From positions 92,836 to 156,835 of the forward strand of contig CAADTH010000045.1 in NCBI GenBank assembly GCA_900751885.1: a stretch of DNA of 64,000 nt. The letters run 5' to 3'. Within the stretch, counting starts at the first letter, position 1. Each line of letters begins with the position of its first letter. A program made the position numbers and the translations under genes. The DNA is from Clostridia bacterium. GTDB lineage: Bacteria > Bacillota > Clostridia > UBA1381. The notes beneath the pieces are model-generated. The model was not told the origin of the DNA and did not search any database. It was given only the letters and a program-made list of their open reading frames with translations. Below, piece after piece: positions 5,007 to 62,216 of the stretch.

Positions 5007-5085
5007 ATTTTTTTATTTATTACGCCGGGAGATGACAGCAGTCAAACATGTTATGTTCGACACATTCATCTGACGGATTATTGTT

Positions 5086-41671: not shown

Positions 41672-41676
41672 GCGGT

Positions 41677-42744: not shown

Positions 42745-42791
42745 AACAATCAAATCATGCCTATTTATCATTTTTATTCTGAGGTGACAGT

Positions 42792-43559: not shown

Positions 43560-44051
43560 CTATAAGCTTATGTAGTACGGGCAGATATCTTCATATTCTC
43601 CACTTTTCATGCGAAAGCCCTTACAAATCGTCCCCAGCTGTGTGAAGCCGAGTCTTTCATATAAGTTTCTCGCATGGATATTGTTGGATACCACCGCATT
43701 GAACTGAAGGATTCGAAACCCAATTTCTCTGGCGTGAACCATACAATCTTTCACTAGTTTTTCTCCAATATGGATTCCCCGGCACTGCGCGCTGACGGCA
43801 TAGCTTGCATTGGCGATATGTCCGCACCGACCAATATTATTCGGGTGAAGAATATATAAGCCTACTATTGTTTCATTGCCTTTATCCTCTGCCACAGCGC
43901 AATAGCTTTGACTTTGGAAAAAGTCTAAACCTGTTTGTTTATCTAAAAGCTCCTCCTGTGGAAACGCAATCCCTTCCTCCACAATCTCATTCCAAATCGC
44001 TATCATTTGAGGAAGGTCCTGTTCACTAAATTGTCTTATCCCAAGTTCCAT
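43560..44051 (-). CDS. GNAT family N-acetyltransferase
   Basis: Start at MELGIRQF. The track start is a TTG inside the GGAGGT RBS. Acetyl-CoA motif RGIHIGEKLV present. Confidence 0.85.
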   Translation of the reverse strand: MELGIRQFSEQDLPQMIAIWNEIVEEGIAFPQEELLDKQTGLDFFQSQSYCAVAEDKGNETIVGLYILHPNNIGRCGHIANASYAVSAQCRGIHIGEKLVKDCMVHAREIGFRILQFNAVVSNNIHARNLYERLGFTQLGTICKGFRMKSGEYEDICPYYISL

Positions 44052-44120
44052 TTCACGTACCTCCAAATTTTGATCTGATTCTATTATACTTTTTTTGATG
44101 TGGGATGTAAAGAATATGAT

Positions 44121-44246: not shown

Positions 44247-44678
44247 CTATATAGCTTTCATAGGTCCCACTACACTTTGTCGGAAAATCAAATCCTTTTC
44301 TCTTCTCCTCGCTGACAGGTTTGATATCCAAAGAGGATTCTGTATCTGCTCGTTTCCCTCAGTATATTCTGATTCTGCGATAAAATGATAATAAAAGAGA
44401 TATCCTGCTGCACTTCCTGCAATCAGAATAATCGCCATTGCTATTACAATAATCCACGATACTCCTTTGCGATGCGACCTATTGCTTTGTTTCCCTGTTT
44501 TGATTTGTGTACTGTTTACAGAAAAACCACATCCGCTACAAAATTTAGAATTTTCCTCTATTTGTCCGCCGCAATTTTTACAAAACTGCTTTAGAGGGAT
44601 TTTCTGAACCTTATCGCCACAATAATCACAAAAAATGTCCCCTTCTGTTACTTCATTTCCACACTTTTCACATACCAT
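44247..44678 (-). CDS. Double zinc-ribbon, single-pass membrane protein
   Basis: Start at MVCEKCGNEV (RBS GGGAGAG). Two CxxC-x(8-12)-CxxC ribbons, then TM VSWIIVIAMAIILIAGSAAGYLF. Confidence 0.6.
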   Translation of the reverse strand: MVCEKCGNEVTEGDIFCDYCGDKVQKIPLKQFCKNCGGQIEENSKFCSGCGFSVNSTQIKTGKQSNRSHRKGVSWIIVIAMAIILIAGSAAGYLFYYHFIAESEYTEGNEQIQNPLWISNLSARRREKDLIFRQSVVGPMKAI

Positions 44679-44689
44679 AGTAACTCTCC

Positions 44690-46315
44690 CTATTTTTTCT
44701 GTTTTCTGCCGTGTAAATTTATTCTGATGAATGCTATCAGCAGGAAACAGAATATGACAGCCAAACATAAGATAACAATGAATAAAACCACCTTATTGAT
44801 GGTATTAAATTCTATGTCAATCGTTGCATCCGAGCCCAAAACAGTTGAATATTCATTATTATAGAAGCTACATTCCTCTATATTGGATGAGAGTAAATTG
44901 GTTTTATCAGGGAGCTTGTATATCAGCTCAAATTCTGCTATTGGAATCATATCGTCAATCATTTTTCCTACTCTAATTGTCTCAGAAATCCGATTTTTCT
45001 GAAAGGGTATCATACTTTTTTCATATTCAATTCGGTTATCCCCTCTTATTATTTTTTGCGTAAATTCAGTTATTTTTTTACTATCGCGAGAATGAACCGC
45101 AATACAATATGTCTTATTCTCACCTTCCACGTCCGTCGAAATATTAGCTTTCCTATCATTCGTTTTGACATTATATAGTGTATCTAAAATTTTTTCATCA
45201 AATACCTTTGCTGTATCCAATGGAATTGAAAAAATAATTTTTCGTTCTATCCCTTTGAACATATTACTGTAATCTGTTCTTACCTGCAGAGCAGACAATT
45301 TCAATCCTCTTTGATAGGAATATTCAAATTGCCCCTCTTCTCCAGAATACCTGATTTGATTTTCGTGAACAGAGAGTGTATCACTTTCTGTAATAGATAA
45401 ATTTTTATAATATTGCGGATATGTAAAACTATACTCAAAATTCCCATCTTCATTGAGAACCTTTGTAACGCCTATACGTTCCATGCAATCTACCAAAACA
45501 AAATCCTTTTGCGGTGTTTCCGTTTCCAAGGTACTGACTGTCAATCCCGCTGCCAGCAAAGTCTTTTTTGATAATTCATATTGGTTTTCTGCTTTTATTG
45601 ACACAGTTATATCTAAGTTATCACTATTTTTATTTTCATTTGAAATCTCCCCTGCCGCTTTGAAATTAGTCCACACTGCACTTTTTGTGGAATCTATCAG
45701 ATGTTCCTTTCTTATTTTCGCTCTGATTGTCCGTTCGAATCCACCATCACCATTACTTGTTGTTACGAGCTCTAACTCATCAAATCTTATATGATTGCCA
45801 TCTCTTACGTCAAAATTTTCTTTTGTTTCATATGTTTTTCCATTCAAATCGATCATACAATTTTCAATTTTAATCAATCTGTCAAATTTTAATTCCTTCA
45901 TCATATTGTTTGACAGCAGTTGTTTTTGTAAAAAATGAAACATCTGTGCAGAATCAAAATTTTCAACAAATTTAAAGCTCTCTGAGGGGTCATAAATGAT
46001 TACAGGACGGTATCCCAATAACTGCTTCATATATGTTTCATATTCATCTCTTTTGTCAAACGAAAAACAAAGTGTTATTTTCATGTCGCGTTTTTGTTTT
46101 TCAATTTCATAGCTACACCAGCTTGGAAGCGTTTCACTCAAAATGTTTTCAAACGTTTTCGAGCCGCCATCTATAAAATTGTTTAAATCTGATCTGTCAA
46201 AGGTACATACAAGTGTTCTGCTTCCGCAAAAAGGTACTTCCTCTGCATATGCGGCTATCGCTGATAAGAAAAGAAGCGATAGGATGATAAAAATTGATGT
46301 GATATTTTTTTTCAT
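44690..46315 (-). CDS. Hypothetical secreted protein with C-terminal TM anchor
   Basis: 541 aa. Signal peptide MKKNITSIFIILSLLFLSAIAAYA and C-terminal TM VVLFIVILCLAVIFCFLLIAFI. No recognisable domain. Confidence 0.55.
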   Translation of the reverse strand: MKKNITSIFIILSLLFLSAIAAYAEEVPFCGSRTLVCTFDRSDLNNFIDGGSKTFENILSETLPSWCSYEIEKQKRDMKITLCFSFDKRDEYETYMKQLLGYRPVIIYDPSESFKFVENFDSAQMFHFLQKQLLSNNMMKELKFDRLIKIENCMIDLNGKTYETKENFDVRDGNHIRFDELELVTTSNGDGGFERTIRAKIRKEHLIDSTKSAVWTNFKAAGEISNENKNSDNLDITVSIKAENQYELSKKTLLAAGLTVSTLETETPQKDFVLVDCMERIGVTKVLNEDGNFEYSFTYPQYYKNLSITESDTLSVHENQIRYSGEEGQFEYSYQRGLKLSALQVRTDYSNMFKGIERKIIFSIPLDTAKVFDEKILDTLYNVKTNDRKANISTDVEGENKTYCIAVHSRDSKKITEFTQKIIRGDNRIEYEKSMIPFQKNRISETIRVGKMIDDMIPIAEFELIYKLPDKTNLLSSNIEECSFYNNEYSTVLGSDATIDIEFNTINKVVLFIVILCLAVIFCFLLIAFIRINLHGRKQKK

Positions 46316-46317
46316 TT

Positions 46318-49149
46318 TTAATCCTCCAAAATTAGATCATATCTGTAAATCGCATTTGCAGTCGCGCTGTCAGGCATGGAATAAAAATAGATTCTGTTGT
46401 CCATGATTTCCATTCCGCAATTTTCCAGATCACAGCTTAGTCTTAACAAATCAAACCGTTTTATCTCTTCCTTCTGCGTAAAGTCATTGCTTAAAGAGTA
46501 TAAAATCAATTCTGTATCTGTCTGATCAAAATACCACCAATTCCCTGCACCATCCTGACACATTGTAAAGAATGCTTGATTGCTATTGACCTCCACCATC
46601 CGTTTGCTATTACCGCTTTTCGCATCATAAAGGACAATTTGATACGGCAAGGCATCTTCTTGTTCCGTTTCATTCTTCACGGTTGTGATAATGCCATCCT
46701 TTTCATACTTCCATCCACTTATCCCTTCCGCCTTGATAAATCCACCACCATATTGCAGGTGAACCGCTTGCGCTGTACCTCTTAAATATCCATTCGAAAT
46801 ATATTGAACTGCTGCATGATATCCGCCCTCTTTGTAATATTCCCTTGGATATTCTTCGACTGTTATTTGCTTCCCGTATTCCTTCACAATCCCCCCGTCT
46901 TTGTTTATCAAGTAATAATCGTTTTCTGCTCCGCCCAAAAATGAAAATATGCTGTTTTCCTTTGTAACCACCATAAAATTATCATCCTGTTCTACCATAA
47001 CCTCCACAGGCTCATGCAATTCGCACAAATCAGATACAGAAAGATTTTCTCTGTTTAAACGCCTGATTGATTTATTGTTATCATTTGGAACATAATAAAA
47101 GTATTCTTCATCCATATGCAAGCACCAGTTGATGCTTTTTAAAATACTATCCTTTTTCTTTCCGTCCTTGCTTACGCGCAATAAATCATATACGCCTTTT
47201 TCTTCGCTTGCTTTCAGCAAATAGATATATGAGGCATCTATTCCGCAAATTGTAAAGAAATCCTCCTCATAAAGAACCTTATCCCCTGCGCTACCATCAT
47301 TGTTCTTTCGTTCCAATTTTCCATTGAGATTTTTCATATAGGTACATGCTTCATCCTTTGCAACCATGCGCTGATACTGCATGGTGTTTTCATCAAAATC
47401 TGTCGGATACGACACATTCCTGTTGTCATTTTCTTCATCCTCTTTCGCTTCTTCCTGTTGGCTTTTCTTGCTATCCAATGCCTTTTTCACTGCATTCTCA
47501 GCGTTCAGCATCTCATATTTTTTTCCTTCGCTCCATTCATACTCCCCTGAGGCGGTACTGCAAACTATATTTTTCACCTCTTCCCCTGATAAATTTGGAT
47601 TTATTGAGAATACCATCGCAGCAACCCCCGCAACATGAGGTGCCGCCATTGACGTTCCTTGGTTATTCAAATAAGTTTTATTTATAAATCCCAATGTGTT
47701 TACATATATTCCTGTACTATATATATTGACACCCGGAGCTAAAATATTGACTCTTTCGCCGCATTGGCTAAAATCAGCAATGGAATAAACGTTCTGTGCG
47801 TCACATTTGGCGGCGCCCACCACGATGATTCTGTCTTTTATTCTTTTATTTTCAATGGCGTTCAATACATCATATTTTGCATCCACATTCCCAAATTCCA
47901 CTCTCCTATCATAGTCTTCATATTTTGCTTTAAATGTATCTTTATTATCGTCTGTAAGCTCGACATAGCCATATTTATTCTGATCTTCCGGATCACCGGG
48001 ATCTACCCTTATGTATTGATACTTCGTATTGCTATCTGTAGAATTCTGATTTCCGGCAGCTGTACTTATAATAAAGTCATATCCACTATCCAGCAAAAAC
48101 TCTAAATACTCAGCAAGACAATTGCTGTCTTCTGTGATTTCATTTTTTGCTTTTATGCTGTCTCTGCTTGCAGCAAATGCAACTACATCATTTATACCCA
48201 TACTAATATTGACAACCTTGCATTTATCTATTACTATCAATTCAGTTAACGCTACAATATATCTGCTGATAGTAGTATAGTTTTCAGCAATTCCACTTTC
48301 CGAAACAGCATATAGCTTATTTTTAGGAGCTACCCCTGCTACCCCCTGTTTATTGTTGAATAACGCCGCTATTGTACCAGATACATGCGTACCATGACTG
48401 ATTCTTTTTAGTTTTTTATTTTCCTCTTTTATCTGTTTGTCACTTAAATTAAGTAACGGCGCTTTCTCAAAACGTAAATCGTTATGTCTGGTACAGAACA
48501 TATTATCAAAAACACCAATGTTTACTTCGCTCATATCATCTATGTATTCCCACGCTTCTCGTGCATGAATTGCTTTCATTCCCCAATTCAAATCTTCCGG
48601 ATTCACATTGCTATCCTGCCAATAACTCTTCCACTCTTTGTCATTTGGTGCTTTTTTATTATATTGAATATCGAGTTTTATCGCCGTATCAATCGATACA
48701 TGATTGACGAATTTTTCTTTCTTTATCTTTTCAGCAATTCCATTTAAATCATTGTAACGATAATGGTCTTTAAATTTTAGCTGGTACATTTTCGTACAAT
48801 CTAAATATCCTATCAATTCACAATGATATTTTTTCGCCAGTTCCTCAATAAAGCTATCCGCTACTGTACGGTCAGCTCTTATGATGAGTTGATTATCCAC
48901 ATAATGAATTCCTGTTTTCTCGTCGATTTGTATTTCTTCTTGATTTGCGCTTGTCCAATAGAAGCCGTCGCGATATTGAGAGGATACATTCGCATTTCTA
49001 ACAATCATGTAACCCACGCTTCCCGCGATGGCAATTAAAATACTGATAAGCAATACATACCGTGTCTTACACCTTTTCACCGCTGCTCCGCAGTAGATGC
49101 AAAATTTTGTTTTTGGGGGCAAATTCCTTCTGCACTTAGGGCACTTCAT
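46318..49149 (-). CDS. Zinc-ribbon / TM-anchored S8 subtilisin-like serine peptidase with C-terminal DUF5050-like propeller
   Basis: Start at MKCPKCRRNLPPKTKFCIYCG (RBS AAGGAAGG), then a TM helix. Catalytic D (GVFDNMF), H (HGTHVSGTIAA) and S (GTSMAAPHVAGVAAM). The C-terminal region has repeated YY...LYR/DG blades. Confidence 0.82.
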   Translation of the reverse strand: MKCPKCRRNLPPKTKFCIYCGAAVKRCKTRYVLLISILIAIAGSVGYMIVRNANVSSQYRDGFYWTSANQEEIQIDEKTGIHYVDNQLIIRADRTVADSFIEELAKKYHCELIGYLDCTKMYQLKFKDHYRYNDLNGIAEKIKKEKFVNHVSIDTAIKLDIQYNKKAPNDKEWKSYWQDSNVNPEDLNWGMKAIHAREAWEYIDDMSEVNIGVFDNMFCTRHNDLRFEKAPLLNLSDKQIKEENKKLKRISHGTHVSGTIAALFNNKQGVAGVAPKNKLYAVSESGIAENYTTISRYIVALTELIVIDKCKVVNISMGINDVVAFAASRDSIKAKNEITEDSNCLAEYLEFLLDSGYDFIISTAAGNQNSTDSNTKYQYIRVDPGDPEDQNKYGYVELTDDNKDTFKAKYEDYDRRVEFGNVDAKYDVLNAIENKRIKDRIIVVGAAKCDAQNVYSIADFSQCGERVNILAPGVNIYSTGIYVNTLGFINKTYLNNQGTSMAAPHVAGVAAMVFSINPNLSGEEVKNIVCSTASGEYEWSEGKKYEMLNAENAVKKALDSKKSQQEEAKEDEENDNRNVSYPTDFDENTMQYQRMVAKDEACTYMKNLNGKLERKNNDGSAGDKVLYEEDFFTICGIDASYIYLLKASEEKGVYDLLRVSKDGKKKDSILKSINWCLHMDEEYFYYVPNDNNKSIRRLNRENLSVSDLCELHEPVEVMVEQDDNFMVVTKENSIFSFLGGAENDYYLINKDGGIVKEYGKQITVEEYPREYYKEGGYHAAVQYISNGYLRGTAQAVHLQYGGGFIKAEGISGWKYEKDGIITTVKNETEQEDALPYQIVLYDAKSGNSKRMVEVNSNQAFFTMCQDGAGNWWYFDQTDTELILYSLSNDFTQKEEIKRFDLLRLSCDLENCGMEIMDNRIYFYSMPDSATANAIYRYDLILED

Positions 49150-49249
49150 CTTTTTTACCTTCCTTTTCTTCCAAAATAAAACAATTACCATATGGATTAC
49201 ACCTTCCTATGGTAATTGTATTCACTTCTGTAGCTTGTTTAAATTTATG

Positions 49250-50356
49250 TTACGCCCCTATTTCATCAGTGACATTCCCGTCATAATCCAATAAATATAA
49301 TTTGTTTTTGTAAGCACTTGCCAATCCGTTGCTGAGTCCCTGTATAGAGCCAAAGTATTTTTTGATATTTATCTCTTCCACTCCACCGCCGTTCATATCA
49401 TAGCGATATAGCTTAGAATCAACTTTATAATATATATCATTATTACAAGCAAATACCGAATAGCTTTGTCGATCGATTTGTGTAAGTTCGCGACGGCTTT
49501 TTCCATCTAAGCTTATTGTGAAAGAGCGATATTCAGAGTCTTGATATATAATCTGATCTTCCATAAATAAAAAATCACGTACTCCTCCGTCAATGAGTTT
49601 CTCCTGTTTTCCATCCACTAAAGATATTCTTATCAATTTATAGTATTTTTTATCTGAATTCAAACTATTATCTGTTATGGTTGCATAAATATAATTTTTA
49701 TAAATTTTGGCTTTATATATTTCATCACCACGCGATCCGATATCTATCTCGATCGAACGCTCTGAATATTTTTCCGAATTTAATCTTTTTGTTAAAACAC
49801 CGCCATCACTTAGTGTATAATTATATTTACCATTGATTAAAACTATATCGGTACTGCTTGGTATATATGGTACTTTTTCAAACTCAGATGCCTTATCTAA
49901 TATTCGATAGCAATCATTTTCATTGCCCGTACTCTCTTCATAATAAATTCCATTGTCTGCTACAGCAATCACACTTATTATACTGCTAGATATTTGTTCA
50001 GTGATTTTTGTTCTTTTATTCATTCTACACAATCCGAAATCTTCAAAATCAATATAATATATATACGAACCGGTTTCATAAATAAAAGTGTTATCATATT
50101 TACTATTATTTACGCTTAGTCCTTCATCATAAATTTTTATATCATTAACACTAGAATAAACACGAAAAACATTGATGCTTGCGATAAAGAATAAAATCAA
50201 AATTGCCAGCATCATGATAAAGACTTTCTTTTTTGAATTATTTTTATAAGGATATATTACAGACGCCGCCTGAAACTGATTTTGCAGTTGATTTCCGCAG
50301 TAAACACAAAATTTTATTCCTTCTTTATTTTCTTTTCCGCACTGATTACAAAACAT
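49250..50356 (-). CDS. Zinc-ribbon / TM-anchored DUF5050-like beta-propeller protein
   Basis: Start at MFCNQCGKENKEGIKFCVYCG (RBS GAGGGAG), then a TM helix. Repeated blades (IYYID..., GIYYEE..., YIYATI..., IIYQDS..., DIYYKVDSKLYRYDMNGG). Confidence 0.68.
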   Translation of the reverse strand: MFCNQCGKENKEGIKFCVYCGNQLQNQFQAASVIYPYKNNSKKKVFIMMLAILILFFIASINVFRVYSSVNDIKIYDEGLSVNNSKYDNTFIYETGSYIYYIDFEDFGLCRMNKRTKITEQISSSIISVIAVADNGIYYEESTGNENDCYRILDKASEFEKVPYIPSSTDIVLINGKYNYTLSDGGVLTKRLNSEKYSERSIEIDIGSRGDEIYKAKIYKNYIYATITDNSLNSDKKYYKLIRISLVDGKQEKLIDGGVRDFLFMEDQIIYQDSEYRSFTISLDGKSRRELTQIDRQSYSVFACNNDIYYKVDSKLYRYDMNGGGVEEINIKKYFGSIQGLSNGLASAYKNKLYLLDYDGNVTDEIGA

Positions 50357-50369
50357 ACTCTTCTCCCTC

Positions 50370-50930
50370 TTACTTTTCTTTTTGTATCGCGACAACTCCA
50401 AGCACAGCTGTCAATATGCTCAGCAGTATAATGCTGGGCATTCTTTCAACATAGGGATTCAAAACCACTGTAATCGCTCCCATAAAGCTATCGCTTGTTG
50501 TTTGTTTGAAAAACAGGCTTGCAAGAATGATGATACATGTAGTCACTGCCATCGCAATCAGATTCTTATTTTTAGTTTTTTTTGAATAAAGGATAAAGTG
50601 TAATGCGCGGATAACTCCCCACATTCCTATTGCAAAATAGCAGGTGCAAAATGAAACAAATCCGATTCCATCCTGCCGAAGCAACAAATCCGAAACCGTA
50701 TTGACACTTGCTTTTAAGCAAACATTGAGTTGAAACAGTGCCAATACTGCAAATGATAAAATTGCCATCCAATGCAGCACCTTTGACACATCTATTTTAG
50801 ATATGCTTGCCGCACTGCCTGCATTGTGTCCATTTATAGCAACGGCTGTTGCCTCCCCATTGTCAGCACCGCACTTTGTACAAAACCGCTCATTGTTTAA
50901 CTCACTTCCACAATTGATACAAAATCTCAT
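50370..50930 (-). CDS. Zinc-ribbon protein with 4 predicted TM helices
   Basis: 186 aa. MRFCINCGSELNNERFCTKCG, then hydrophobic helices. Confidence 0.62.
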   Translation of the reverse strand: MRFCINCGSELNNERFCTKCGADNGEATAVAINGHNAGSAASISKIDVSKVLHWMAILSFAVLALFQLNVCLKASVNTVSDLLLRQDGIGFVSFCTCYFAIGMWGVIRALHFILYSKKTKNKNLIAMAVTTCIIILASLFFKQTTSDSFMGAITVVLNPYVERMPSIILLSILTAVLGVVAIQKEK

Positions 50931-50970
50931 AATCCTTCTCCTATCTCAAGGCTTTGCCTGAATGCTGCCT

Positions 50971-51396
50971 CTAGTCCTGTGTTTGTATTGGTTTCCCGCA
51001 TCGGGCACAAAACTTTGCGGTATCTTTATTGATATAGCCACACTCGCATTGGATTCCATTTTGGACTGGCGGCGGCGTTATCGGCTGTGTATATTGTACC
51101 GTCTGTATTTTTGCCTCCTCAAGCATTTGGAGCTGTTGTTTCAGCTGTATTATTTGTTGCTCGCGTCCCGCTATTTCATTACATAGTTCAACACACTGCT
51201 CTATCTGAATTTCTCCGCTTGTCTGCAGGTGATAGATTTGTGTGCCCATGCTATGTAGCAAATGATTTTTTTCCTGTTGTGCATCTTCAATCTGCGTATT
51301 TAATTTTGCCTTTTCAACTAACATCTTTGAGCCTTCGCTCACTGTATTTACCCCTTTGCTTACGCCTACCACCAGCTTATCCAAAAAACCTGCCAT
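50971..51396 (-). CDS. Coiled-coil protein with C-terminal zinc ribbon
   Basis: 141 aa. Helical N-terminus MAGFLDKLVVGVSKG..., Q/E-rich coiled coil, C-terminal CECGYINKDTAKFCARCG. Confidence 0.62.
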   Translation of the reverse strand: MAGFLDKLVVGVSKGVNTVSEGSKMLVEKAKLNTQIEDAQQEKNHLLHSMGTQIYHLQTSGEIQIEQCVELCNEIAGREQQIIQLKQQLQMLEEAKIQTVQYTQPITPPPVQNGIQCECGYINKDTAKFCARCGKPIQTQD

Positions 51397-51446
51397 TTTA
51401 CATTCCCCCTATTTATTTTTTAATATAAGTAACATACAAAAACCCA

Positions 51447-51824
51447 CTACTGCCGTTTGTATGCAGTAAATTGATTCCATGATAAAATAGCCAAGATAGC
51501 ATATACTGCAATATTCAAAAGGAAGCTTGTGTTAAATGAATACATGATAATACTGAACAGATTGCTGCATGCTCTCAGCCCAAAAGCCACCCCCAACGCT
51601 AACATATCATTTTTACTGAAGCTCAGCACAAGCCCCATGATGTAAATGAAGTATAAGATTGGACCTACAATTCCCACAATGACACTGAGAACGGTAAATT
51701 GGCACAACAGCAAATAGATTGGATAAATCAATACCAATATGCGTGAAATTTGTAAACCGATCAGCATGATATCTTTGCTTTTAAAATAGTCATTCAATAC
51801 CTTTTGTACATCTGATAATTTCAT
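51447..51824 (-). CDS. Small 4-TM membrane protein (first gene of the operon)
   Basis: 125 aa, RBS AAGAGGAAG, four hydrophobic helices. Confidence 0.58.
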   Translation of the reverse strand: MKLSDVQKVLNDYFKSKDIMLIGLQISRILVLIYPIYLLLCQFTVLSVIVGIVGPILYFIYIMGLVLSFSKNDMLALGVAFGLRACSNLFSIIMYSFNTSFLLNIAVYAILAILSWNQFTAYKRQ

Positions 51825-51987
51825 GTTACTTCCTCTTTTCTATAAGATTCTTTCGTTTCATTTTAAACCATCCATCGTTTTATATGCTTTGTTCATCGTT
51901 TTCGTACATCTGCCGTTTTTTTTATTTTATGCGTTCTGGCTGTACCCGACCGTTCTTATGTCAATCTTCTACATCCTATTTAAAAAA

Positions 51988-52029
51988 ATAAGAATCACCA
52001 CATAATTTACATTATGTGGTGATTCTTAT
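51988..52029. repeat. Left dif-like recombination site embedded in a 19-bp-arm perfect palindrome
   Basis: ataagaatcaccacataat-ttac-attatgtggtgattcttat. The 24-nt core accacataatttacattatgtggt lies at 51997-52020. Confidence 0.6.
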
Positions 52030-52171
52030 CGGATTTTATGATAAACAACGAATTCTTTTCTTTTAATAAACAAAAAACCCACTGCATTTAGACCGATAGA
52101 TACCTTAAAAATCCATCGGTCTGTTTCTGCTTACATTTTTTTCAACATTTTTCTTAATTTTTTAAAGTCTA

Positions 52172-52199
52172 TTGACAAACCCTTTTTTTCGACTATAAT
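52172..52199 (+). promoter_or_regulatory. Consensus sigma-70 promoter inside the flanked segment, currently facing away from the zinc-ribbon operon
   Basis: TTGACA (52172-52177), 16-nt spacer, TATAAT (52194-52199). Confidence 0.55.
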
Positions 52200-52227
52200 A
52201 TGTATAGAGAGAACTAAGAAGAATCAT

Positions 52228-52265
52228 CAAATAAACCACATAATGTAAATTATGTGGTTTATTTG
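52228..52265. repeat. Right dif-like recombination site embedded in a 17-bp-arm perfect palindrome
   Basis: caaataaaccacataat-gtaa-attatgtggtttatttg. The central 4 nt are the reverse complement of the left site. It ends 1 nt before the recombinase stop codon. Confidence 0.6.
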
Positions 52266-53114
52266 TTAGCACTGCAACAAGCCTAATTTCTGTATTTGTT
52301 TTCTGTGAACCTCTCCTGTTTCCATTGTATATATCCGTGTTGTATTTATATTGCTATGTCCAAGTATATCTGCAAGGCGTATAATATCCCTTTGGGCTGA
52401 ATAATATGTCCGGGCAAATAGATGTCTGAAGTTATGTGGAAATACCTTGTTTTTGTCTACCCCTGCGTCAGCACATAGCTTTTTCATGTCACTCCAAATA
52501 TTTGACCGATCCATAGGCTTTCCTGATTTTGTTATAAACACCGCTCCGCTGGTAATTCTTCGCTCTCTGACATATTTTTTGAGCAGCTGACAAAGCTGTT
52601 TGGGCAATATTACAATTCTCATTTTGCCTTTACAATTTATAGTTGCCTGTCCAGCCTTCACCGCTTCCACTGTAATAAATCTAAGTTCCGATACTCTGAT
52701 TCCTGTTGAACAAATGGTCTGCATTAAATAATATAACCTTTTGTTGTTTTTATCCAAAGCTGCCCTTAGCAGTCTTTGATATTCTGCCTTTGTCATCTCT
52801 TTTTCCTTGGCAGCAAATATTTGTCTTTGAATCTTTACCGCTTTCACCTTGCAGTCCGTCCACCCAACAAATTCCAAAAAACGATTCAGCGATGAAAGAA
52901 TTGCGTTAACGCTTGCGGGAGCATACTTTCCTATGATAATTTGCTTGTACTCCAACATTAAGCTCTTATCCACCTCTCTGTCTAAGCACCATTGTCCAAA
53001 TACCGTTACATCATGGATATATTTATTCAATGTAGAAATGGATTTTTCCTCGAACTTTAAATATTCTCTAAACTCATCAATTCTTTTTACTGTTATTTTT
53101 CTCATGCTTGCCAA
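52266..53114 (-). CDS. Tyrosine-type site-specific recombinase (Xer-like, 282 aa)
   Basis: N-terminal SAM-like core-binding domain. Catalytic region GIRVSELR, HNFRHLFA, LGHSNINTTRIYT (R...HxxR...H...Y). Confidence 0.88.
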   Translation of the reverse strand: MASMRKITVKRIDEFREYLKFEEKSISTLNKYIHDVTVFGQWCLDREVDKSLMLEYKQIIIGKYAPASVNAILSSLNRFLEFVGWTDCKVKAVKIQRQIFAAKEKEMTKAEYQRLLRAALDKNNKRLYYLMQTICSTGIRVSELRFITVEAVKAGQATINCKGKMRIVILPKQLCQLLKKYVRERRITSGAVFITKSGKPMDRSNIWSDMKKLCADAGVDKNKVFPHNFRHLFARTYYSAQRDIIRLADILGHSNINTTRIYTMETGEVHRKQIQKLGLLQC

Positions 53115-53923: not shown

Positions 53924-54373
53924 TTACTCCTTCATGTATTTCAATGGTTTCATTTTAAAATACATGCACATGGCAATCCGGCACACAACCATTTGAACAA
54001 TCATTAATATACAAAACAATCTGTGTCTTGCTTCACTCTGGACTTCATAGCCATAATTTAAAATCGCAATTCCTACTACTATGATGAGAATGTCTAATAG
54101 AAGCGTCACAACATATGAATATAACCAGGGAAGCTTTTTGAAGCATTTCCTAAAACATGGCACAAGCATAGTGATAGAGGCCATTATTCCAAGTGCACCA
54201 AACAATGAAAATCCCGCAGTGTTACTAGCGAAACCAGAAGTAAGTATTGTATTCATATCTATCAACAACCCGAATGGTATGAAAAAAAGTTCCAATATTA
54301 AAGGAAAAACTATTCCTATAAACCATAAAATGGAAACCAGATTTGATATGGCATTTTTAAACCCATTTTTCAT
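53924..54373 (-). CDS. Hypothetical 4-TM membrane protein
   Basis: 149 aa. Its ATG overlaps the stop of the AAA+ gene by 4 nt, suggesting translational coupling. Confidence 0.5.
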   Translation of the reverse strand: MKNGFKNAISNLVSILWFIGIVFPLILELFFIPFGLLIDMNTILTSGFASNTAGFSLFGALGIMASITMLVPCFRKCFKKLPWLYSYVVTLLLDILIIVVGIAILNYGYEVQSEARHRLFCILMIVQMVVCRIAMCMYFKMKPLKYMKE

Positions 54374-57300
54374 ACCGAAACCTCCTTAATATCTTCGGCT
54401 GTTATTGTGATTAGCTCTTCTTTTGTCAAATCATTGTCCTTACTTAATCTAAGTGCCTGATTATCTACTGATTTTTCAAATACATTTCTAACAAATCGAC
54501 CGTTTCCAAACTGAGGATTCTGTTTTGCCGTCTCGAACAGATTATAAAGACTTTGCTTTGCCTGGGTATCAATCATATAGCCTTTAGAATTGTATTGTTT
54601 TTCCGCGATTTGAATCAATTCCTTTATGGTATAATCAGGAAACTCAATTATATTTGCAAACCTGGATTTTAGTCCCGCATTTTTTAACAGGAAATTGTCC
54701 ATATCATTGCTGTATCCAGCTAAAATAACAACCAATCTATCCCTATTATCATCCATCAATTTAACCAGTGTGTCAATGGCTTCTCTGCCAAAATCATTTT
54801 CGCCACCTTGTATCAGCGAATAGGCTTCATCAATGAATAAAACACCATCTAATGCACTTTGTACTATCTGTGTGGTTTTTATTGCCGTTTGACCAACATA
54901 TCCTGCTACAAGCCCTGCTCTGTCTGTCTCGACTAATTTGTTGGCTCTGATAACCCCCATATGATACAACATATTAGCAACTGTTCTTGCCATCATGGTT
55001 TTACCCGTCCCAGGATTGCCCTTGAAAATCATGTGCCTCGTTTGTGTTTCATCTACTTGTAATCCTAGTTTTCTTCGTTCTTCTTGCATCCTAAGCCGGG
55101 CATTCAGACTTCTCATGTAATTTTTAACAACTTCTAAGCCAATCACATTTTCAAACTCTTTTTCTATGTCGAATCTTATATTATCAGCTTTTTTCACAAC
55201 AATATCTTCAGGTAGAATAACATTCATTTCGTTTGATGCAACATCTGATATTGCAATTCTCGACGATTGATTTCTTACAAGTTCATCAATATAATTTCGA
55301 ATCATTCTTCCGTTGCCTGAGTGCACGTTTGAATGTTTCTGAAGATTATGAATCTGTTCCTTGAAAAGATTGACACTTGCATCTGTGAATACAAATCCCC
55401 TGCTCTCAATCATCTTCAAGCCAATTTGAAATAATTCATCAACTGAATAGTCTGGAAAATTGATTCTAAGAGGGAATCGGGATTCCAAGCCTGAATTTGC
55501 TTTTAAAAAATCTTTCATTTCTTTTTCATATCCAGCCAGTATAACCAATATTTCGCCTCGATAATCCTCAATCAGCTTAATGAGAGTGTCAATGGCTTCT
55601 TGACCAAAACTACTGCCATCGTTTGTTATCGCGTAGGCTTCATCTATGAACAAAACCCCACCCAAAGCCTTTTGAAATATCTCTTCTGTTTTTCTGGCAG
55701 TTTGCCCAACATATTCTGCTACTAAACCACGTTTATTGGTTTCAACTAAATGACCTGATTTTAAAATGCCCATCTGTTTGAACATATCGGCAACAACTCT
55801 GGCAATTGTTGTTTTACCTGTCCCAGGATTGCCAGAGAATATCATATTCAACGACTGGGTGGTATCCACTTTAAGGTCAGCCTTTCTACGCTTTTCCTGA
55901 GCAATAAGCAGCTTATGTTGTGTTCTGACAAAATCCTTAACTTTAGATAAACCAATTATTTTTGACAACTCCGTTTCCAAATCAAAGTTGTTTGTTTCAT
56001 CGAATTCAAAATCGGCTTTTGTTAATAATTCTAAATCAACAGTATGATCTTGGACAATACGCCTAGACTGCTTTAAAATAGCTGCTTCAACCATATTTCT
56101 CACCAATCTGCCATTACCATTGTCATTTTTACCCTTTATTTGAGATTTCTCAAATAATTTTAACAAGCCATCTTCGCATTCGCTATCAATACGATATCCT
56201 TTATTTCTTGCAGTAATTAAAGAGATATGATACAGTTCTGACGGCGTATAATCCTCGAAGTTTATCCTATTGGGAAATCTTGATTTTAAACCGGGATTTG
56301 CTTTCAAGAGTTCTCCTATTTCCTTTTCATAACCAGCCAAAATGACAACTAAATCATCACGGTTGTCTTCCATACCTTTAACAAGTGCATCAACTGCTTC
56401 AAGTCCAAAAATATCATTTTTATCTCTGTACAAGGAATATGCTTCATCAATCAATAGGACACCGCCAATACTGCTGCGAATCACTTGAGCTGTAAGCTGT
56501 GCCGTCTGACCAATATATTGCCCCACCAAATCGGCTCTTGTAACCTCCCTGAGTTGCCCGGAAGAAAGAACACCGATCGCTTTTAAATATTTTGCTACCA
56601 TACGTGCAATCATTGTTTTACCTGTACCCGGATTACCGGTAAATATCATATGCATGGAGACATCCGCAGCTTTAAGCCCTTGTACTCGTCTAAGCTCTTG
56701 AACCTTTAAATTTTCTTCAATGTTCAGCACATAATCTTTGACACTTTTAAGACCAATAACAGTATTGAGCTCTGTTTTTATCTTATCAGCTGCAACAGAA
56801 TCATACTTTTTCACAAAATCCGATAAAGCTATCTCTTGGTTATTGATTGTTGCCACAAAGCAGTTATTATATGAAAGAAAAACTGATTCTTCTGACTGTG
56901 TTTGATTTCTCAAACGATATTCAGATAAAGCCTTATAAATTTCGTTTTCTATATAATCTTCCAGTCCTTTAATTCCTGTTTTGGTATGAAAGGATGATTT
57001 GATTTTATCATTGAAGGCAGAATCTGTAGCTATATTCATTTTCAAATACTGTTTGCATTTATTTATAAAACGAGCAATCAACATATGAGTGATAGAAGCT
57101 ATTTCTTGCTCCTTAAAATTCTGCATCAAAATGATATCACCAATGCATTTTGTAAAAGCAGTGCCAAATGTTTCAGAAATCTGATTTTCTCCTTTTTCTG
57201 AAATAAATATAAAAAATTTACCGTTACAATGAAGTACATCAATAGAATTTGTTAACAAAGCTCCTGTTGCTTCAACCAGCATGTTATTCTGAAGCGCATA

Positions 57301-57987
57301 TCTTTTATTCAAATTATATGTTCCGTCTTGGAGCAATCGGGAAATAATCTCCAAATTATTACTATGAGTCTTTTCATAGTCTTTAAAAACCACAATATCA
57401 TTTTGTCCATATAAAGCCTTATAAATATCAGATAAAAATAGATCAGACTCAGATGAAGTGGGATATTTGCTTAAATCTACTTGTCCTATCGTATGATTTG
57501 TTATCACCTTTCGTTTCTTTAAAAGCTCGGCAATTTTTTCGACGCTATAGTATTTCCCCATGCTTTTAGCACCTAAAATGAAAATAATATTTTTCGGTAT
57601 AATATTATCATATCCGCTGACATACGGTCTTTTAAACGCGGTGCATAATTGAGAAATATAATTTTCGTCCGCGATTATTTCCTGAGATAATAGCACGTTT
57701 AAATCACTGAATTTATCTTCTATAGAATTTGGTTTTATAATCTTTTCATTTTTTGATGGATATGATAAAGCGGTATTCGTTCTTGCCGCCTGCTCAACCG
57801 CATTCGATATAGGCTGTTGCGGTTGATTTACAGCAGAGGCGCTTTCGCCGAACTGCGTATTTTCCACTGTACTATTCGCTGCCCCTGCCTTATATTTTCT
57901 TGTGATAAAGCCGTCTTTTTTTATTATTTCTATAATCTCCCATTCAGGGAATAGAAATTTTAGCGCTTTCTTAAGTGTACTTTTCAC
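54370..57987 (-). CDS. Giant multi-AAA+ ATPase: degenerate Clp-D2-like module plus three tandem CbbX/CfxQ/SpoVK-type AAA+ modules
   Basis: 1205 aa, GTG start with RBS GGAGGA. Walker A GNPGTGKT occurs three times (codons 451-458, 719-726, 990-997), each followed by L[LF]IDEAY Walker B. The N-terminal module has GAKSMGKY and VVFKDYEK in place of functional Walker A/B. Confidence 0.85.
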   Translation of the reverse strand: MKSTLKKALKFLFPEWEIIEIIKKDGFITRKYKAGAANSTVENTQFGESASAVNQPQQPISNAVEQAARTNTALSYPSKNEKIIKPNSIEDKFSDLNVLLSQEIIADENYISQLCTAFKRPYVSGYDNIIPKNIIFILGAKSMGKYYSVEKIAELLKKRKVITNHTIGQVDLSKYPTSSESDLFLSDIYKALYGQNDIVVFKDYEKTHSNNLEIISRLLQDGTYNLNKRYALQNNMLVEATGALLTNSIDVLHCNGKFFIFISEKGENQISETFGTAFTKCIGDIILMQNFKEQEIASITHMLIARFINKCKQYLKMNIATDSAFNDKIKSSFHTKTGIKGLEDYIENEIYKALSEYRLRNQTQSEESVFLSYNNCFVATINNQEIALSDFVKKYDSVAADKIKTELNTVIGLKSVKDYVLNIEENLKVQELRRVQGLKAADVSMHMIFTGNPGTGKTMIARMVAKYLKAIGVLSSGQLREVTRADLVGQYIGQTAQLTAQVIRSSIGGVLLIDEAYSLYRDKNDIFGLEAVDALVKGMEDNRDDLVVILAGYEKEIGELLKANPGLKSRFPNRINFEDYTPSELYHISLITARNKGYRIDSECEDGLLKLFEKSQIKGKNDNGNGRLVRNMVEAAILKQSRRIVQDHTVDLELLTKADFEFDETNNFDLETELSKIIGLSKVKDFVRTQHKLLIAQEKRRKADLKVDTTQSLNMIFSGNPGTGKTTIARVVADMFKQMGILKSGHLVETNKRGLVAEYVGQTARKTEEIFQKALGGVLFIDEAYAITNDGSSFGQEAIDTLIKLIEDYRGEILVILAGYEKEMKDFLKANSGLESRFPLRINFPDYSVDELFQIGLKMIESRGFVFTDASVNLFKEQIHNLQKHSNVHSGNGRMIRNYIDELVRNQSSRIAISDVASNEMNVILPEDIVVKKADNIRFDIEKEFENVIGLEVVKNYMRSLNARLRMQEERRKLGLQVDETQTRHMIFKGNPGTGKTMMARTVANMLYHMGVIRANKLVETDRAGLVAGYVGQTAIKTTQIVQSALDGVLFIDEAYSLIQGGENDFGREAIDTLVKLMDDNRDRLVVILAGYSNDMDNFLLKNAGLKSRFANIIEFPDYTIKELIQIAEKQYNSKGYMIDTQAKQSLYNLFETAKQNPQFGNGRFVRNVFEKSVDNQALRLSKDNDLTKEELITITAEDIKEVSV

Positions 57988-58229: not shown

Positions 58230-59762
58230 TTATTCCCACTCGATCGTTGCCGGCGGCTTAGACGTAATATCATACACCAAGCGATTGACATGATCCACCT
58301 CATTGATAATTCTGTTTGACACCTTTTCGAGCACATCATACGGAATCCGTGCCCAATCCGCGGTCATAAAGTCTGTTGTTGTCACTGCACGAAGTGCCAA
58401 TGTATAGTCATAGGTTCTCTCATCGCCCATCACACCAACACTTCTCATATCCGTAATCACTGCAAAATACTGATTGATTTCTCTGTCCAGTCCTGCGGCC
58501 GCAATCTCCTCACGGAAAATTGCATCCGCATCACGCAGAATTGCCAGCTTGTCCCTGGTGATTTCCCCAATCACGCGCACAGCAAGTCCTGGTCCCGGGA
58601 ACGGCTGACGCCATACCAAATTTTCAGGAATTCCAAGCTCCATTCCAAGCTTTCGCACCTCGTCCTTAAATAACTCGCGAAGCGGTTCAATGATTTCCTT
58701 AAAATCGACATGCTCCGGAAGTCCTCCCACATTGTGGTGGCTCTTGATAACCGCCGCATCCCCCGCGCCGCTTTCAATCACATCCGGGTAGATTGTTCCC
58801 TGCACCAGATAATCCACAGTCCCAATCTTTTTTGCTTCCGCCTCAAATACCCGAATAAATTCCTCTCCGATGATTTTTCTCTTCGTCTCTGGGCTTGTCA
58901 CCCCTGCCAGCCTATCTAAAAAACGATCCTGTGCATTGACACGAACCAGATTGATGTCAAACTGTTCGCGGAATATCTTCTCTACCTCGTCTCCCTCATT
59001 TTTGCGCAACAGTCCGTTATCCACAAAAATACAGGTAAGCTGTTTACCCACTGCCTTGTGAATCATGACGGCGGCGACAGAGCTGTCCACGCCGCCTGAA
59101 AGCGCACAAAGAACTCGCTTTTCCCCAATCTTGCTTCTGAGCTCTTCAATGGAGCGTTTGGCAAAATCACTCATCAGCCAGTCACCCTGACAGCCGCAGA
59201 TTTCATAGAGGAAATTTCGAAGCATCTCCTGCCCTCTTAGCGTATGGTTCACCTCCGGGTGAAACTGGACACTGTAAAGCTGTTTTTCCGCATTTTCATA
59301 AGCCGCCACCGGGCAGTTGTCTGTTGTCGCAGTGATGGTAAAGCCCTCCGGCACTTTTTCGATATGATCTGTATGGCTCATCCAGCACTGGTTATCCTGA
59401 TCAATTCCTGCAAACAGCTTGCTTTCCTTTGTATACAGCTGTGTTTTTCCATATTCCCTCTTATCCGCTCTGGTCACCTTGCCGCCGAGCATCTGTGCCA
59501 TCAACTGGCTTCCGTAGCAAATTCCAAGTACAGGCACTCCAAGCTCGAACACCTCCTGGCTGCAGTGCGGTGCATGGTCATCATACACACTATTCGGTCC
59601 CCCTGTAAAGATGATTCCCTTTGGATTTTTCTCCTTGATTCTCTCTATGTCCGCTGTATAAGGAAGCACCTCACAGTACACATTACATTCTCTGACCCTG
59701 CGCGCAATCAGCTGATTATACTGTCCCCCAAAATCCAGCACGATGACTGTCTCATTTTTCAT
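58230..59762 (-). CDS. guaA: GMP synthase (glutamine-hydrolysing)
   Basis: Start at [22 protein letters not shown]. GATase (GICYGSQL) and ATP-PPase (SGGVDSSV) motifs, and the C-terminus ...PPATIEWE typical of GuaA. Confidence 0.93.
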
Positions 59763-59829
59763 TCCTTCCATCCTCTCCGCTTTCGCTGTCGTTTTATTAC
59801 AAAAATTATACCATTTTGTCCCCAAAAAT

Positions 59830-60300
59830 TCAATCTCTATTTTTTGACTCTACAATGAGAGTGACAGGACCATCATTGTGAATCTCAACCTGCATATCCG
59901 CCCCAAAGTTTCCTGTCTCGACCCGAAGTCCTGACTTCTCGCATTCTCTGACGAATGTCTCATACATCTCCTCTGCAAACGGCGGCTTTGCCGCCTTCGA
60001 AAAGCTGGGACGCCTTCCCTTTTGGCAATCGCCGTAGAGTGTGAATTGAGATACCACCAAAACCTCACCTTTTAAATCCTTGACACTTAAATTCATTTTC
60101 CCGTCCCCGTCCTCGAAGATACGCAAATCCATACACTTTTGTGCAACATAAGCGGCATCCTCCTGAGTATCCTCAGGAGAGACTCCGACAAAAATCAACA
60201 GTCCACAAGCAGACTCTCTTCTCTTGTCGCCAACCCGCCCAATTATCTGTCCCTCAACCTCTACTGACGCATACCGGACGCGCTGTAATACCGCTCTCAT
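59830..60300 (-). CDS. dtd: D-aminoacyl-tRNA deacylase
   Basis: 156 aa. MRAVLQRV...SQFTLYGD...GRRPSF...NDGPVT motifs. Confidence 0.88.
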
Positions 60301-62216
60301 TCCAGATACCCCTTTTCCTCAATCACTGCCTGAAGCTCCTCCCACTGTTCATACAGCTGTTCTAATTCTGTTTTCCGTGCGTTTACCATCTCCATGATTT
60401 CCGCCGCCTTTACATAGTCCGTCGCAATCTCCGGCTCTTCCAGCTCACTTTCTAAATTTCCAATCTCGTCTTCCATAGAGGCAATTTCCTTTTCCACCGC
60501 TGCAAAGCGGCTGAGCGTTTTTCTCTTTTCCGCCGCAATGCGCTTCTGCTCCTGATAGTCGAGCTTTTTCTCCTGCACCGGCTTATCTGCCTGTGCTTCG
60601 CTTTGTGACTGCTTCACCCGTTCTGCATAAAAATCATATCCGCCCTCATAGCTTACCACACCGCCCTTTTCCATGTGGAGAATCCTCGTCGCAAGCTTGT
60701 TGATGAAGTAGCGGTCATGGGAAACCATGAGCATCGTACCGTCATATCCGGCAAGCGCCCGTTCCAGTGCTTCTCTTGACTCGATATCCAAATGGTTGGT
60801 CGGCTCATCCATAATCAGCAGGTTCGCCCTTTGAAGCATCAACTTTGCCAAAAGGACACGCGCCCGCTCACCGCCTGAGAGCATACCAATTTGCTTGTAT
60901 ACATCATCCCCACGAAAAAGAAATACGGCAAGCGCGTTTCTCACCTGCGTCTGAGACAGATTGGGATAGTCGTCCCACAGCTCGTCTATCACTGTTTTGT
61001 TTGGATTCAGTCCCTCCTGCGCTTGATCATAGTACGCAACATCAATATTCGCTCCAATTTTATATGTCCCATTATCCTGTTCCAGCTGTCCGAGCAGAAT
61101 TTTCAACAGCGTCGTTTTCCCACATCCGTTCGCACCCAAAAGGAATACCTTCTCGCCCTTTAATATGTGCAAATTTGTATGCTCAAACAGCGTTTGATTC
61201 CCAAACGACTTGGAAAGCTCCTCTGTCACAATGACATCCTGCCCGCCGCCTGGCTTTGCCTGAAAGTGAAATTCCATCTCATCCGGCTCATCCATCGGCT
61301 TTTCCAGCCCTGCTTCCAGCTTGTCAATCACCTTCTGCTTGCTCTCAGCCATCTTGATGTTTCGTTCCCGATTCCATCTGCGCTGCTGTTCGACAACCTT
61401 CTCCAGACGTCCAATCTCTTTTTTGGTGTTTTCATATTGCCTTTTTTGTGTTTTTTGGTCAATCTCCTTCTGCTTGGCATACTCGCTGTAATTTCCATTG
61501 TAGGAAAAAAAACGTCCACGATCCAGCTCAAATGTCTTATTTGTCACACGATCCAAAAAGTATCGGTCATGGGAAATGACAATAAATGCACCCTGATACG
61601 CGCGCAAAAACTCCTCCAGCCATTCTACCGAATCGATATCCAAATGGTTGGTCGGCTCGTCTAACAGAAGAAGATTCGTATCAGAGAGCAAAATCTTTCC
61701 CAGCTCCAGCCTTGTTTTCTGTCCCCCGGAAAGCTTCTCCACCTTCTTTTGAAACTCCTCCTCTGAAAATCCAAGCCCCCTCAGTGTGGAGCTCGCACGG
61801 CTCTTGTAATAAAATCCGCCCTGATCGGAAAACCGCTCAGAAAGCACTGTTTGCCTTGCAACAAGCGTATCCAACTCCCCATTTTGGTGTTCGATATCCC
61901 AGCGAATTTCCTCCAGCTCCGATTCCATATCAATCAAATCAGAAACCACAGACAGAATTTCATCCATGACAGTTCTTTCCGGATGAACACACGCGTACTG
62001 CTCCAGATATCCAAGCCGTGTGTTTTTGTTTTGAAACAGCTCGCCGCCATCTATCTGCACACTTCCCGTTAATATGTTAAAAAAAGTCGATTTTCCGGCT
62101 CCATTTGGTCCGACAAATCCAATCTTATCATTTTCGTCTACACTGAAAGAGACTTTGTCAAACAAAGTCTCATCTGCAAACATTTTTTTTATGCTACTCC
62201 CATTGAGTAATATCAT
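60297..62216 (-). CDS. ABC-F family ATPase (two ABC domains, C-terminal coiled coil)
   Basis: 639 aa. GPNGAGKST and GANGCGKTT Walker A, two LSGG signatures, no TM domains. Confidence 0.9.

Follow-up and report, generated by a model that had tools for sequence, protein, structure and literature searches.

The stretch of DNA analysed here, called the window throughout, comprises 64,000 nucleotides (nt) of contig CAADTH010000045.1 from a Clostridia bacterium. Between positions 51,988 and 53,114 it holds a gene for a tyrosine recombinase and, just beyond the end of this gene, two inverted copies of a 24-nt site that enclose a sigma-70-type promoter. A candidate operon begins on the far side of the sites, on the same strand as the recombinase gene (Table 1). 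Judged from the sequence of the locus and from its relatives in other genomes, the element is very probably a self-contained promoter inverton, that is, a promoter carried on an invertible segment, which the assembly has captured in the OFF orientation.

Table 1. Features of the recombinase locus and of the candidate operon, in positions of the 64,000-nt window
Feature	Position	Strand	Remarks
Tyrosine recombinase (invertase) gene, 279 amino acids (aa)	52266..53105	-	ATG 53105 behind a GGAG ribosome-binding site
Operon-proximal recombination site	51997..52020	.	ACCACATAAT-TTAC-ATTATGTGGT on the + strand; pairs with the recombinase-proximal site
Recombinase-proximal recombination site	52235..52258	.	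ACCACATAAT-GTAA-ATTATGTGGT on the + strand; exact inverted copy of 51997-52020
Invertible segment, 214 nt	52021..52234	.	Between the two sites
Perfect palindrome, 17-bp stem, around the recombinase-proximal site	52228..52265	.	-21 to -22 kcal/mol
Palindrome 51988-52029 (19-20-bp stem) around the operon-proximal site, with U7 on the operon strand	51980..52030	-	Terminator scan
AAGAATCA	52219..52226	+	Direct repeat of 51990-51997, just inside the promoter end of the invertible segment
Sigma-70-type promoter TTGACA-16-TATAAT	52172..52199	+	12/12 consensus match; 35 nt from the proximal site
Internal hairpin AGACCGATAGAT...ATCCATCGGTCT with T-rich tail	52090..52145	+	Inverted repeat; hairpin proper 52090-52122
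Candidate regulated operon	44247..51824	-	From open reading frames (ORFs), Pfam and hydrophobic segments
Operon proteins 1-3			125-aa protein with four transmembrane (TM) segments; 141-aa Zn-ribbon protein; 186-aa Zn-ribbon protein with four TM segments
Operon proteins 4-5	46318..49191 (957-aa protein)	-	368/383-aa Zn-ribbon/DUF5050 protein; 957-aa Zn-ribbon/TM/S8 subtilase
Operon proteins 6-7			541-aa signal-peptide protein with C-terminal TM segments; 173-aa Zn-ribbon/TM protein

The ORF delimited mechanically for the recombinase (52266-53114) has 282 codons, counted from a TTG at 53114, and this was the length given in an initial annotation made from the sequence alone. The ATG at 53105 is the likely start instead: the exact 279-aa product that begins there is on record in 10 public contigs, and an exact look-up of the 282-aa TTG-start product in public records returned no match. 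The other part of that claim, an intact R/HxxR/H/Y set, stands, as R137, K161, H224, R227, H250 and Y259 are all present, align with the catalytic residues of XerD and are conserved in 94-97 of 97 homologues. The protein matches the Pfam Phage_integrase catalytic domain (E=5e-30), with weak matches to N-terminal SAM-like domains, and among solved structures it comes closest to Pyrococcus XerA (4a8e) and E. coli XerD (1a0p). The best NCBIfam matches are XerA (141 bits against a cut-off of 220), XerD (122 against 330), XerC (107 against 335) and XerS (65 against 267), and the models of Fim-type invertases fail as well (NF007370 and NF007371, 26.8 and 26.2 bits against cut-offs of 221 and 222). 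By these scores, the enzyme is a simple Xer-like tyrosine recombinase that lies outside the curated Xer and Fim families, and the label 'XerD' attached to it in one source is misleading. Its stop codon (52266-52268) directly abuts the palindrome around the nearer site, 7 nt from the 24-nt core, rather than ending 1 nt from the site as first annotated.

The sequence ACCACATAATTTACATTATGTGGT and its exact reverse complement (24/24 nt, with 214 nt between) were found again at the coordinates first reported. The pair is beyond chance, with 0 matches expected from 100 dinucleotide-preserving shuffles, and the 64-kb window contains no third copy, even when 3 mismatches or the relaxed pattern CACATAA-N6-TTATGTG are allowed. 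Each site is laid out as 10-bp symmetric arms around an asymmetric 4-nt centre (10+4+10), or as 9+6+9 if the conserved T/A beside the centre is counted as part of the crossover region.

Both sites are, at the same time, the cores of longer terminator-like hairpins, so that the two hairpins are to be regarded as putative recombination sites as well as terminators. The one beside the recombinase is terminator-like both for the recombinase gene, on the - strand, and for the transcript that the promoter would make in the OFF state, on the + strand, with a less canonical tail. On the operon side, the - strand can form a 20-pair stem followed by U7 (-28.4 kcal/mol, RNAfold), with the features of an intrinsic terminator. 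The inner half of this stem belongs to the invertible segment. Beyond the core, the palindromes extend by 7 nt on the recombinase side and by 9 nt on the operon side in the present orientation only, and by 0 and 0 once the segment is flipped; the sequence thus predicts a strong intrinsic terminator at 51980-52030 that is assembled only in the OFF orientation. The 9-nt extension is lineage-specific. A split terminator of this kind was considered as a design of the whole family and rejected, the mean extensions being ~1 nt in both states; it is limited to a few lineages, such as the window, L092, L071 and L130. A run of 7-8 T that starts 5-9 nt past the operon-side site is present in the window and in the otherwise dissimilar loci L072/L095, L113, L129, L135, L105 and L080; it may serve as an attenuator, as a DNA bend or as an UP-like element. 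An Rfam scan of 51700-52400 gave sub-threshold hairpin matches only.

The promoter is the best match within the 3 kb scanned, and it faces the right-hand site and the 3′ end of the recombinase gene. On the operon strand, no promoter with at least 9/12 consensus positions lies between the left site and the first operon ATG (51824). The initial annotation is borne out on both counts. The internal hairpin stands upstream of the promoter, in the same direction, and its sequence suggests an insulating terminator.

These features point to the following mode of action. The 279-aa recombinase would bind each site as a homodimer and, as the centres TTAC and GTAA stand in inverted orientation, strand exchange would flip the 214-nt segment. 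In the OFF state, transcription from the promoter would run into the 17-bp-stem hairpin at the end of the recombinase gene and give an RNA of ~60 nt at most, and the operon, without a promoter of its own, would be shielded from upstream read-through by the 20-bp-stem terminator with its U7 tract. In the ON state the -10 element would end at ~52056, which would place the promoter ~225 nt upstream of the operon ATG and co-oriented with it, at the distance first estimated; the extended stem of the operon-side terminator would be dismantled, with a change in predicted hairpin energy from -28.4 kcal/mol to -18.4 kcal/mol in the ON leader (RNAfold). Seen in the direction of the operon, the internal terminator would then come after the recombinase gene and before the promoter, where it would block read-through from the recombinase gene. 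In this scheme, one flip would at the same time bring the promoter to the operon side, take the shielding terminator apart and insulate the promoter from upstream read-through. The junctions predicted for the inverted state are AAGAATC-ACCACATAAT-TTAC-ATTATGTGGT-TTATTTGATG and CCGATAAGAATC-site-TTATTTGTTAGC. We infer from sequence that the window copy flips, as we do the cleavage positions and the effect on transcription; regulation of the operon by the switch is suggested by the geometry and by relatives in the ON orientation.

The cassette family in Clostridia

A search with ACCACATAATNNNNATTATGTGGT against one genome per GTDB species, with one perfect site required per locus, gave at least 120 loci, in Lachnospiraceae, Oscillospiraceae, other Clostridia and a few Gastranaerophilales. 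Owing to the perfect-site requirement, the conservation of the arms is partly built into this sample, whereas the covariation of the centres described below is not. The cassette has the order recombinase stop codon, site, internal terminator, TTGACA-17-TATAAT, site and downstream operon. The paired sites are mostly 150-330 nt apart (segments of 154-330 nt) and follow directly after recombinases 44-75% identical to that of the window; in more than 80 loci the arms ACCACATAAT and ATTATGTGGT come after the stop codon of a homologous recombinase. Homologues with 70-74% identity to the window recombinase are very numerous. On the contigs shown for P0110, P0060, P0081 and P0086, the stop codon is followed by ACCACATAAT-CGTG-ATTATGTGGT, a promoter facing the recombinase, a conserved hairpin, ACCACATAAT-CACG-ATTATGTGGT, a ribosome-binding site and the first operon gene, in this common order.

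The arms are almost invariant, partner sites differing mainly in the outer three bases. The central 4 nt occur in 49 strand-collapsed variants among 90 pairs, and the two centres of a pair are mutual reverse complements in 90/90 cases; palindromic centres are found in 0 of 223 sites, against ~14 expected. A hairpin loop would have no reason to follow either rule, while a crossover region must both match its partner and be asymmetric, and we therefore read the centres as the crossover region of the recombinase. In genomes that carry two family loci, the centres differ in six of eight cases (L055/L061, L060/L097, L036/L142, L093/L105, L066/L131 and L101/L120) and are the same in the other two (L026/L079 and L109/L132), which, in a sample this small, is suggestive of an insulation of the loci from each other by their spacers.

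The segments between the sites also follow a common plan. The consensus of 74 inter-site segments, aligned by promoter orientation, consists of a site, ~65 variable nt, a GACCRATG...CATYGGTC hairpin with a T-rich tail, ~40 nt, TTGACA-17-TATAAT, 25-35 nt and the other site, and the window fits it block for block. The internal hairpin shows compensatory changes (CCGATG/CATCGG in place of CCAATG/CATTGG), and a near-consensus promoter occupies the same relative position in the 74 aligned members, 22-38 nt from the site that it faces.

At most loci a gene starts 0-150 nt from the distal site, on the strand of the recombinase. The first downstream gene, compared in 43 members, is very diverse, and includes TetR regulators (8), SPFH/double-zinc-ribbon proteins, helicases and an O-antigen ligase-like protein, as well as surface proteins with collagen repeats, SLH, SpaA, Listeria-Bacteroides repeats, dockerin/cohesin or BspA-LRR domains. 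To judge from this gene content, the cassette works as a portable switch that stands ahead of operons of many kinds, most of them related to the envelope. Loci L144-L153 have an identical recombinase (P0081) and the same SPFH/double-zinc-ribbon operon next to different upstream neighbours (SecG, YunB, or RepL/HTH_36), and the P0110 loci have a large serine recombinase and an excisionase-like HTH gene nearby; in both the P0081 and the P0110 types, the whole unit appears to move. Phage and plasmid collections hold distant homologues only, with at most 54% identity.

Some members depart from the common layout. In L062 (6606-6981) two tandem sites, 40 nt apart, stand at each end, and a third site with the same centre lies beside one end in L070, L073, L075, L081, L091, L107 and L138. 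The sites of L102 (508-1578; centres TTGC/GCAA) bracket the recombinase gene itself (659-1495), so that the invertible unit would contain the enzyme. Matched pairs with no recombinase homologue in the 8-kb stretch are found in L060 (1565-1795), L093 (2017-2234), L116 (2936-3126) and L128 (1154-1386), and may be served in trans by a recombinase encoded elsewhere. Perfect sites also occur in metagenome-assembled genomes (MAGs) of Gastranaerophilales/Gastranaerophilaceae, which belong to a phylum other than that of Clostridia (L043, L089 and L096; the L043 recombinase is 67% identical to that of the window), and these suggest horizontal spread or, possibly, mis-binning. At the margin of the family, Monoglobus pectinilyticus (L163, 4829-5130) keeps the core ACATAAT-N4-ATTATGT with degenerate outer arms, and Pusillibacter faecalis pMM59_01 (L164, ~4830-5240) encodes a recombinase with 47% identity, behind which another inverted repeat, GACAAAAACAACATTT / AAATGTTGTTTTTGTC, precedes the gene for an S-layer-homology protein. 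As these repeats differ from those of the family, the sites appear to have diversified in the wider recombinase clade.

Orientation of the segment and competing explanations

Orientation was counted in consensus assemblies, which show the majority state only. Among 58 non-redundant species representatives with a strong promoter, it faces the recombinase in 45 (OFF, as in the window) and the operon in 13 (ON), the distance from the promoter to the faced site being equal in the two classes. Two pairs of loci display the inversion itself. L072 and L095, from two different MAGs, have flanks that are 100% identical and 249-nt segments that match only when one of them is inverted, with 1 mismatch. 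L146 and L144 share an identical recombinase (P0081, 71% identical to that of the window) and flanks with ~99.5% identity, and their segments match, at 206/206 positions, only when inverted; L146 is the one ON copy among ten places shown. L085 and L113, tried as a further pair for their common centre and segment length, were rejected, their flanks being unrelated. A site lies at most 150 nt from a contig end in 19/120 loci, against 3.4 expected, and 15 such contigs stop after a single site; the contig of L162 ends 31 nt past the proximal site. Because assemblers break where both orientations are present, these breaks fit mixed orientations within samples. The proposal of the initial annotation, a recombinase-driven invertible promoter in the OFF state, thus finds support in the family cassette, in the covariation of the centres, in the occurrence of both orientations and in two exact inversions.

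Several observations weigh against this proposal, at least for the window copy. The window and L001-L003 (3 of the 10 contigs with an identical recombinase) are all OFF, as are 20/20 contigs shown for the two closest abundant relatives. The ON junction of the window species had 0 matches in the metagenome contigs of the Joint Genome Institute (JGI), a weak null given that OFF copies there were uncounted; that of the abundant relatives likewise had 0 metagenome matches, with a pattern (…TTGCATG-site) one base off that of L146 (…TTGCACG-site), which could miss real cases. The palindromes are extended, by 7 and 9 nt, in the present orientation alone, which indicates that this state has long been the one under selection. 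Moreover, the modelled ON leader keeps the 10-bp core hairpin followed by GAUUCUUAUUUUUUU (U7), and the upstream AAGAAUCA could rebuild a bulged stem beside this U-tract; the flipped AAGAATCA could, in the same model, re-pair with TGATTCTT beside the U7 tract into a bulged terminator. Because of this residual hairpin and U-tract, expression in the ON state may be attenuated or partial.

The uniform orientation of the four copies of the species and the missing ON junctions are what would be seen if the switch were locked, a fossil that no longer flips in this lineage, in which the palindromes serve as fixed bidirectional terminators separating three transcription units and the promoter makes a short RNA; the terminator scores of the hairpins, and the perfect 17- and 19-bp stems, which are confined to the present orientation and uncommon among family members, would fit as well. 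We nevertheless consider this unlikely. Decay should have cost either the identity of the sites or one of the six catalytic positions, and both are intact; a switch that is mostly OFF would keep its OFF-state terminators too; relatives with the same cassette flip (L072/L095 and L146/L144); and the assemblies, as consensus sequences, report only the majority orientation. A related view takes the present orientation as the working one, the main output being an RNA, antisense or small, by which the recombinase gene or some other target is controlled, with the operon not being the regulated unit. The promoter does face the 3′ end of the recombinase gene in 45/58 species representatives and in all close relatives, and a transcript of ~60 nt ending at the hairpin is predicted. 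The hairpin and its U-rich tract, however, should stop that transcript before the recombinase gene, the 25-35 nt that would be transcribed are not conserved in the family consensus, no Rfam family scores above threshold, and 13 species have the promoter directed at a downstream gene in the same orientation, whose start is no more than ~150 nt away, all of which makes a role through such an RNA quite improbable.

Two further explanations, both of which the initial annotation had considered as possible objections, dispense with the switch altogether. The resemblance of the recombinase to XerA, XerD and XerC in profiles, and to XerA and XerD in structure, and the presence of a site with symmetric arms around a short centre abutting the gene (PMC5357621) might indicate a chromosomal Xer/dif module for dimer resolution, of the single-recombinase type known from XerS/difSL or XerH/difH. 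We give this hardly any credence, since every Xer equivalog score is far below its cut-off, two inverted sites surround a promoter where one site would be expected, such loci number two or more in several genomes, the arms stay fixed while the centre is free to change from species to species, and inversion products are observed in relatives. The description of the sites as dif-like in the initial annotation is therefore retained for their layout and dropped for the system. The 24-nt motif could, alternatively, be a dispersed terminator or a palindrome akin to repetitive extragenic palindromic (REP) elements, two copies of which happen to be neighbours without any recombination, and each copy is indeed a hairpin with a terminator-like score. 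The chance of this appears negligible, given that there are only two copies in 64 kb, even with 3 mismatches, that the motif occurs elsewhere in pairs 150-330 nt apart beside a homologous recombinase, and that the loops are reverse-complementary in 90/90 pairs and never palindromic.

The candidate operon, its neighbours and the significance of the proposed switch

Returning to the promoter inverton, the unit that it would regulate encodes a cluster of Zn-ribbon and membrane proteins together with a membrane-anchored subtilase (Table 1), and a GNAT gene at 43560-44066 may be its eighth member. In a PADLOC search the operon proteins match no defined defence system, with a weak generic subtilase match only (58 bits). 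Directly past the operon end, an McrB-like AAA_5 protein, McrC and a CAP12/Pycsar-type TIR-domain protein are encoded at 39875-43544 (+), and, as these McrBC and TIR genes adjoin the operon, the switch seems to stand at the edge of a stretch that resembles a defence island. Upstream of the recombinase gene lies a gene for a 1205-aa protein with three AAA+ modules (54370-57987, -), which is SpoVK/CbbX/EccA-like and has weak PADLOC matches to IetA; taken together with the S8 subtilase on the other side of the switch cassette, it recalls the ATPase-plus-subtilase pairing of IetAS. Housekeeping genes (guaA, dtd, ABC-F and PPK2) occupy the other side, at 58230-63681.

In terms of mechanism, the sequence describes an ordinary promoter inverton run by a tyrosine recombinase encoded in cis. 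Beyond this, we tentatively propose that it is one copy of a portable cassette spread across Clostridia and apparently Gastranaerophilales, before varied operons, in which the 4-nt centre serves as an address code and to which the lineage of the window has added an OFF-only split terminator. If this is true, frozen arms combined with a free centre would let near-identical recombinases run many mutually insulated switches per genome, in the manner of heterospecific lox sites. Far less is understood of phase variation in gut Firmicutes than of that in Bacteroides or C. difficile. This family is compact, highly stereotyped and represented in well over 100 species, and it is recognizable from sequence alone, as inverted pairs of ACCACATAAT-N4-ATTATGTGGT beside a 279-aa recombinase. 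The cassette would mark the operons that largely uncultured organisms treat as bet-hedging traits; in the window, the trait would be the Zn-ribbon membrane protein cluster with its subtilase, beside McrBC and a TIR effector. The design of invariant arms and a free spacer also suggests a single-protein recombinase with potentially orthogonal sites for genetic tools in Clostridia.

Comparison with known systems

A statistical catalogue of 2025 seems to include the family already, as inverton group 139 of the hCom2 community. This group comprises 33 invertons, 32 of them from Clostridia, in 17 strains, with inverted repeats of up to 26 nt and ~206-228 nt between them, and nearly all adjoin a tyrosine-type recombinase (invertase group 35) that the inverton cannot regulate (PMC11892184). 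Read-level flipping was measured in Clostridium sp. D5 and in Intestinimonas butyriciproducens (PMC11892184, Microbiome 2025). Geometry, taxa and gene linkage agree with those of the family described here, the match being one of description and not of repeat sequence, and on these three grounds the family and the group are probably the same. What we read of that report does not describe arms that are invariant around a free 4-nt centre, nor an internal terminator, the order of the cassette or its range of cargo (PMC11892184), and in the portion of the literature consulted we found no account of the anatomy, the spread or the covariation of the centres. A literature search for the arm sequences retrieved unrelated primers only.

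Among well-studied switches, the closest in host range are those of RecV of C. difficile, which share with the window a tyrosine recombinase, a short invertible regulatory segment and a host among the Clostridia. The OFF states of RecV switches also involve transcription termination in the leader. RecV inverts regulatory segments of about 150-300 bp upstream of surface and motility operons (cwpV, flgB, cmrRST and others), acting as a remote master recombinase on several sites with inverted repeats mostly unrelated to each other (PMC5903667). In contrast, the recombinase of the window adjoins its own sites, with arms that hardly vary among more than 100 species. In logic, the closest system is fimS of E. 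coli with FimB and FimE, where a short invertible promoter next to tyrosine recombinase genes turns a surface-structure operon ON or OFF. There, 9-bp repeats with flanking half-sites are acted upon by two recombinases of different directionality, and inversion needs IHF and Lrp, whereas the window has one recombinase and symmetric 10-bp arms, with no accessory sites identified. The closest match annotated as 'invertase' is the hsdS invertase PsrA (CreX/IvrR) of Streptococcus, with 32.6% identity across 92% of the protein. PsrA rearranges the coding segments of type I restriction specificity genes and is not known to flip a promoter cassette; nor are its sites known to be related to those of the window.

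The bases beside the centre of the window sites (ATAAT/ATTAT) resemble those of dif. With the Xer/dif systems (XerS/difSL and XerH/difH), the locus has in common the fold and domain order of the recombinase, inverted arms around a short centre and a site that adjoins the gene (PMC5357621). A dif site consists of two 10-11-bp half-sites around a central region of 6-8 bp (PMC5357621). The sites of the window differ in forming an inverted pair around a promoter, in occurring at several loci per genome, in their variable centre and in that the expected product is an inversion. A parallel in design is offered by inverted loxP sites with Cre, or FRT sites with FLP, where the arms bound by the one small tyrosine recombinase are symmetric and the polarity is set by an asymmetric spacer alone, which must match that of the partner. 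The layout of loxP is 13+8+13, compared with 10-bp arms and a variable 4-nt centre in the window, and the likeness is one of design, with no homology claimed. By this analogy, family sites with different spacers would not be expected to cross-react, as is the case for heterospecific lox sites.

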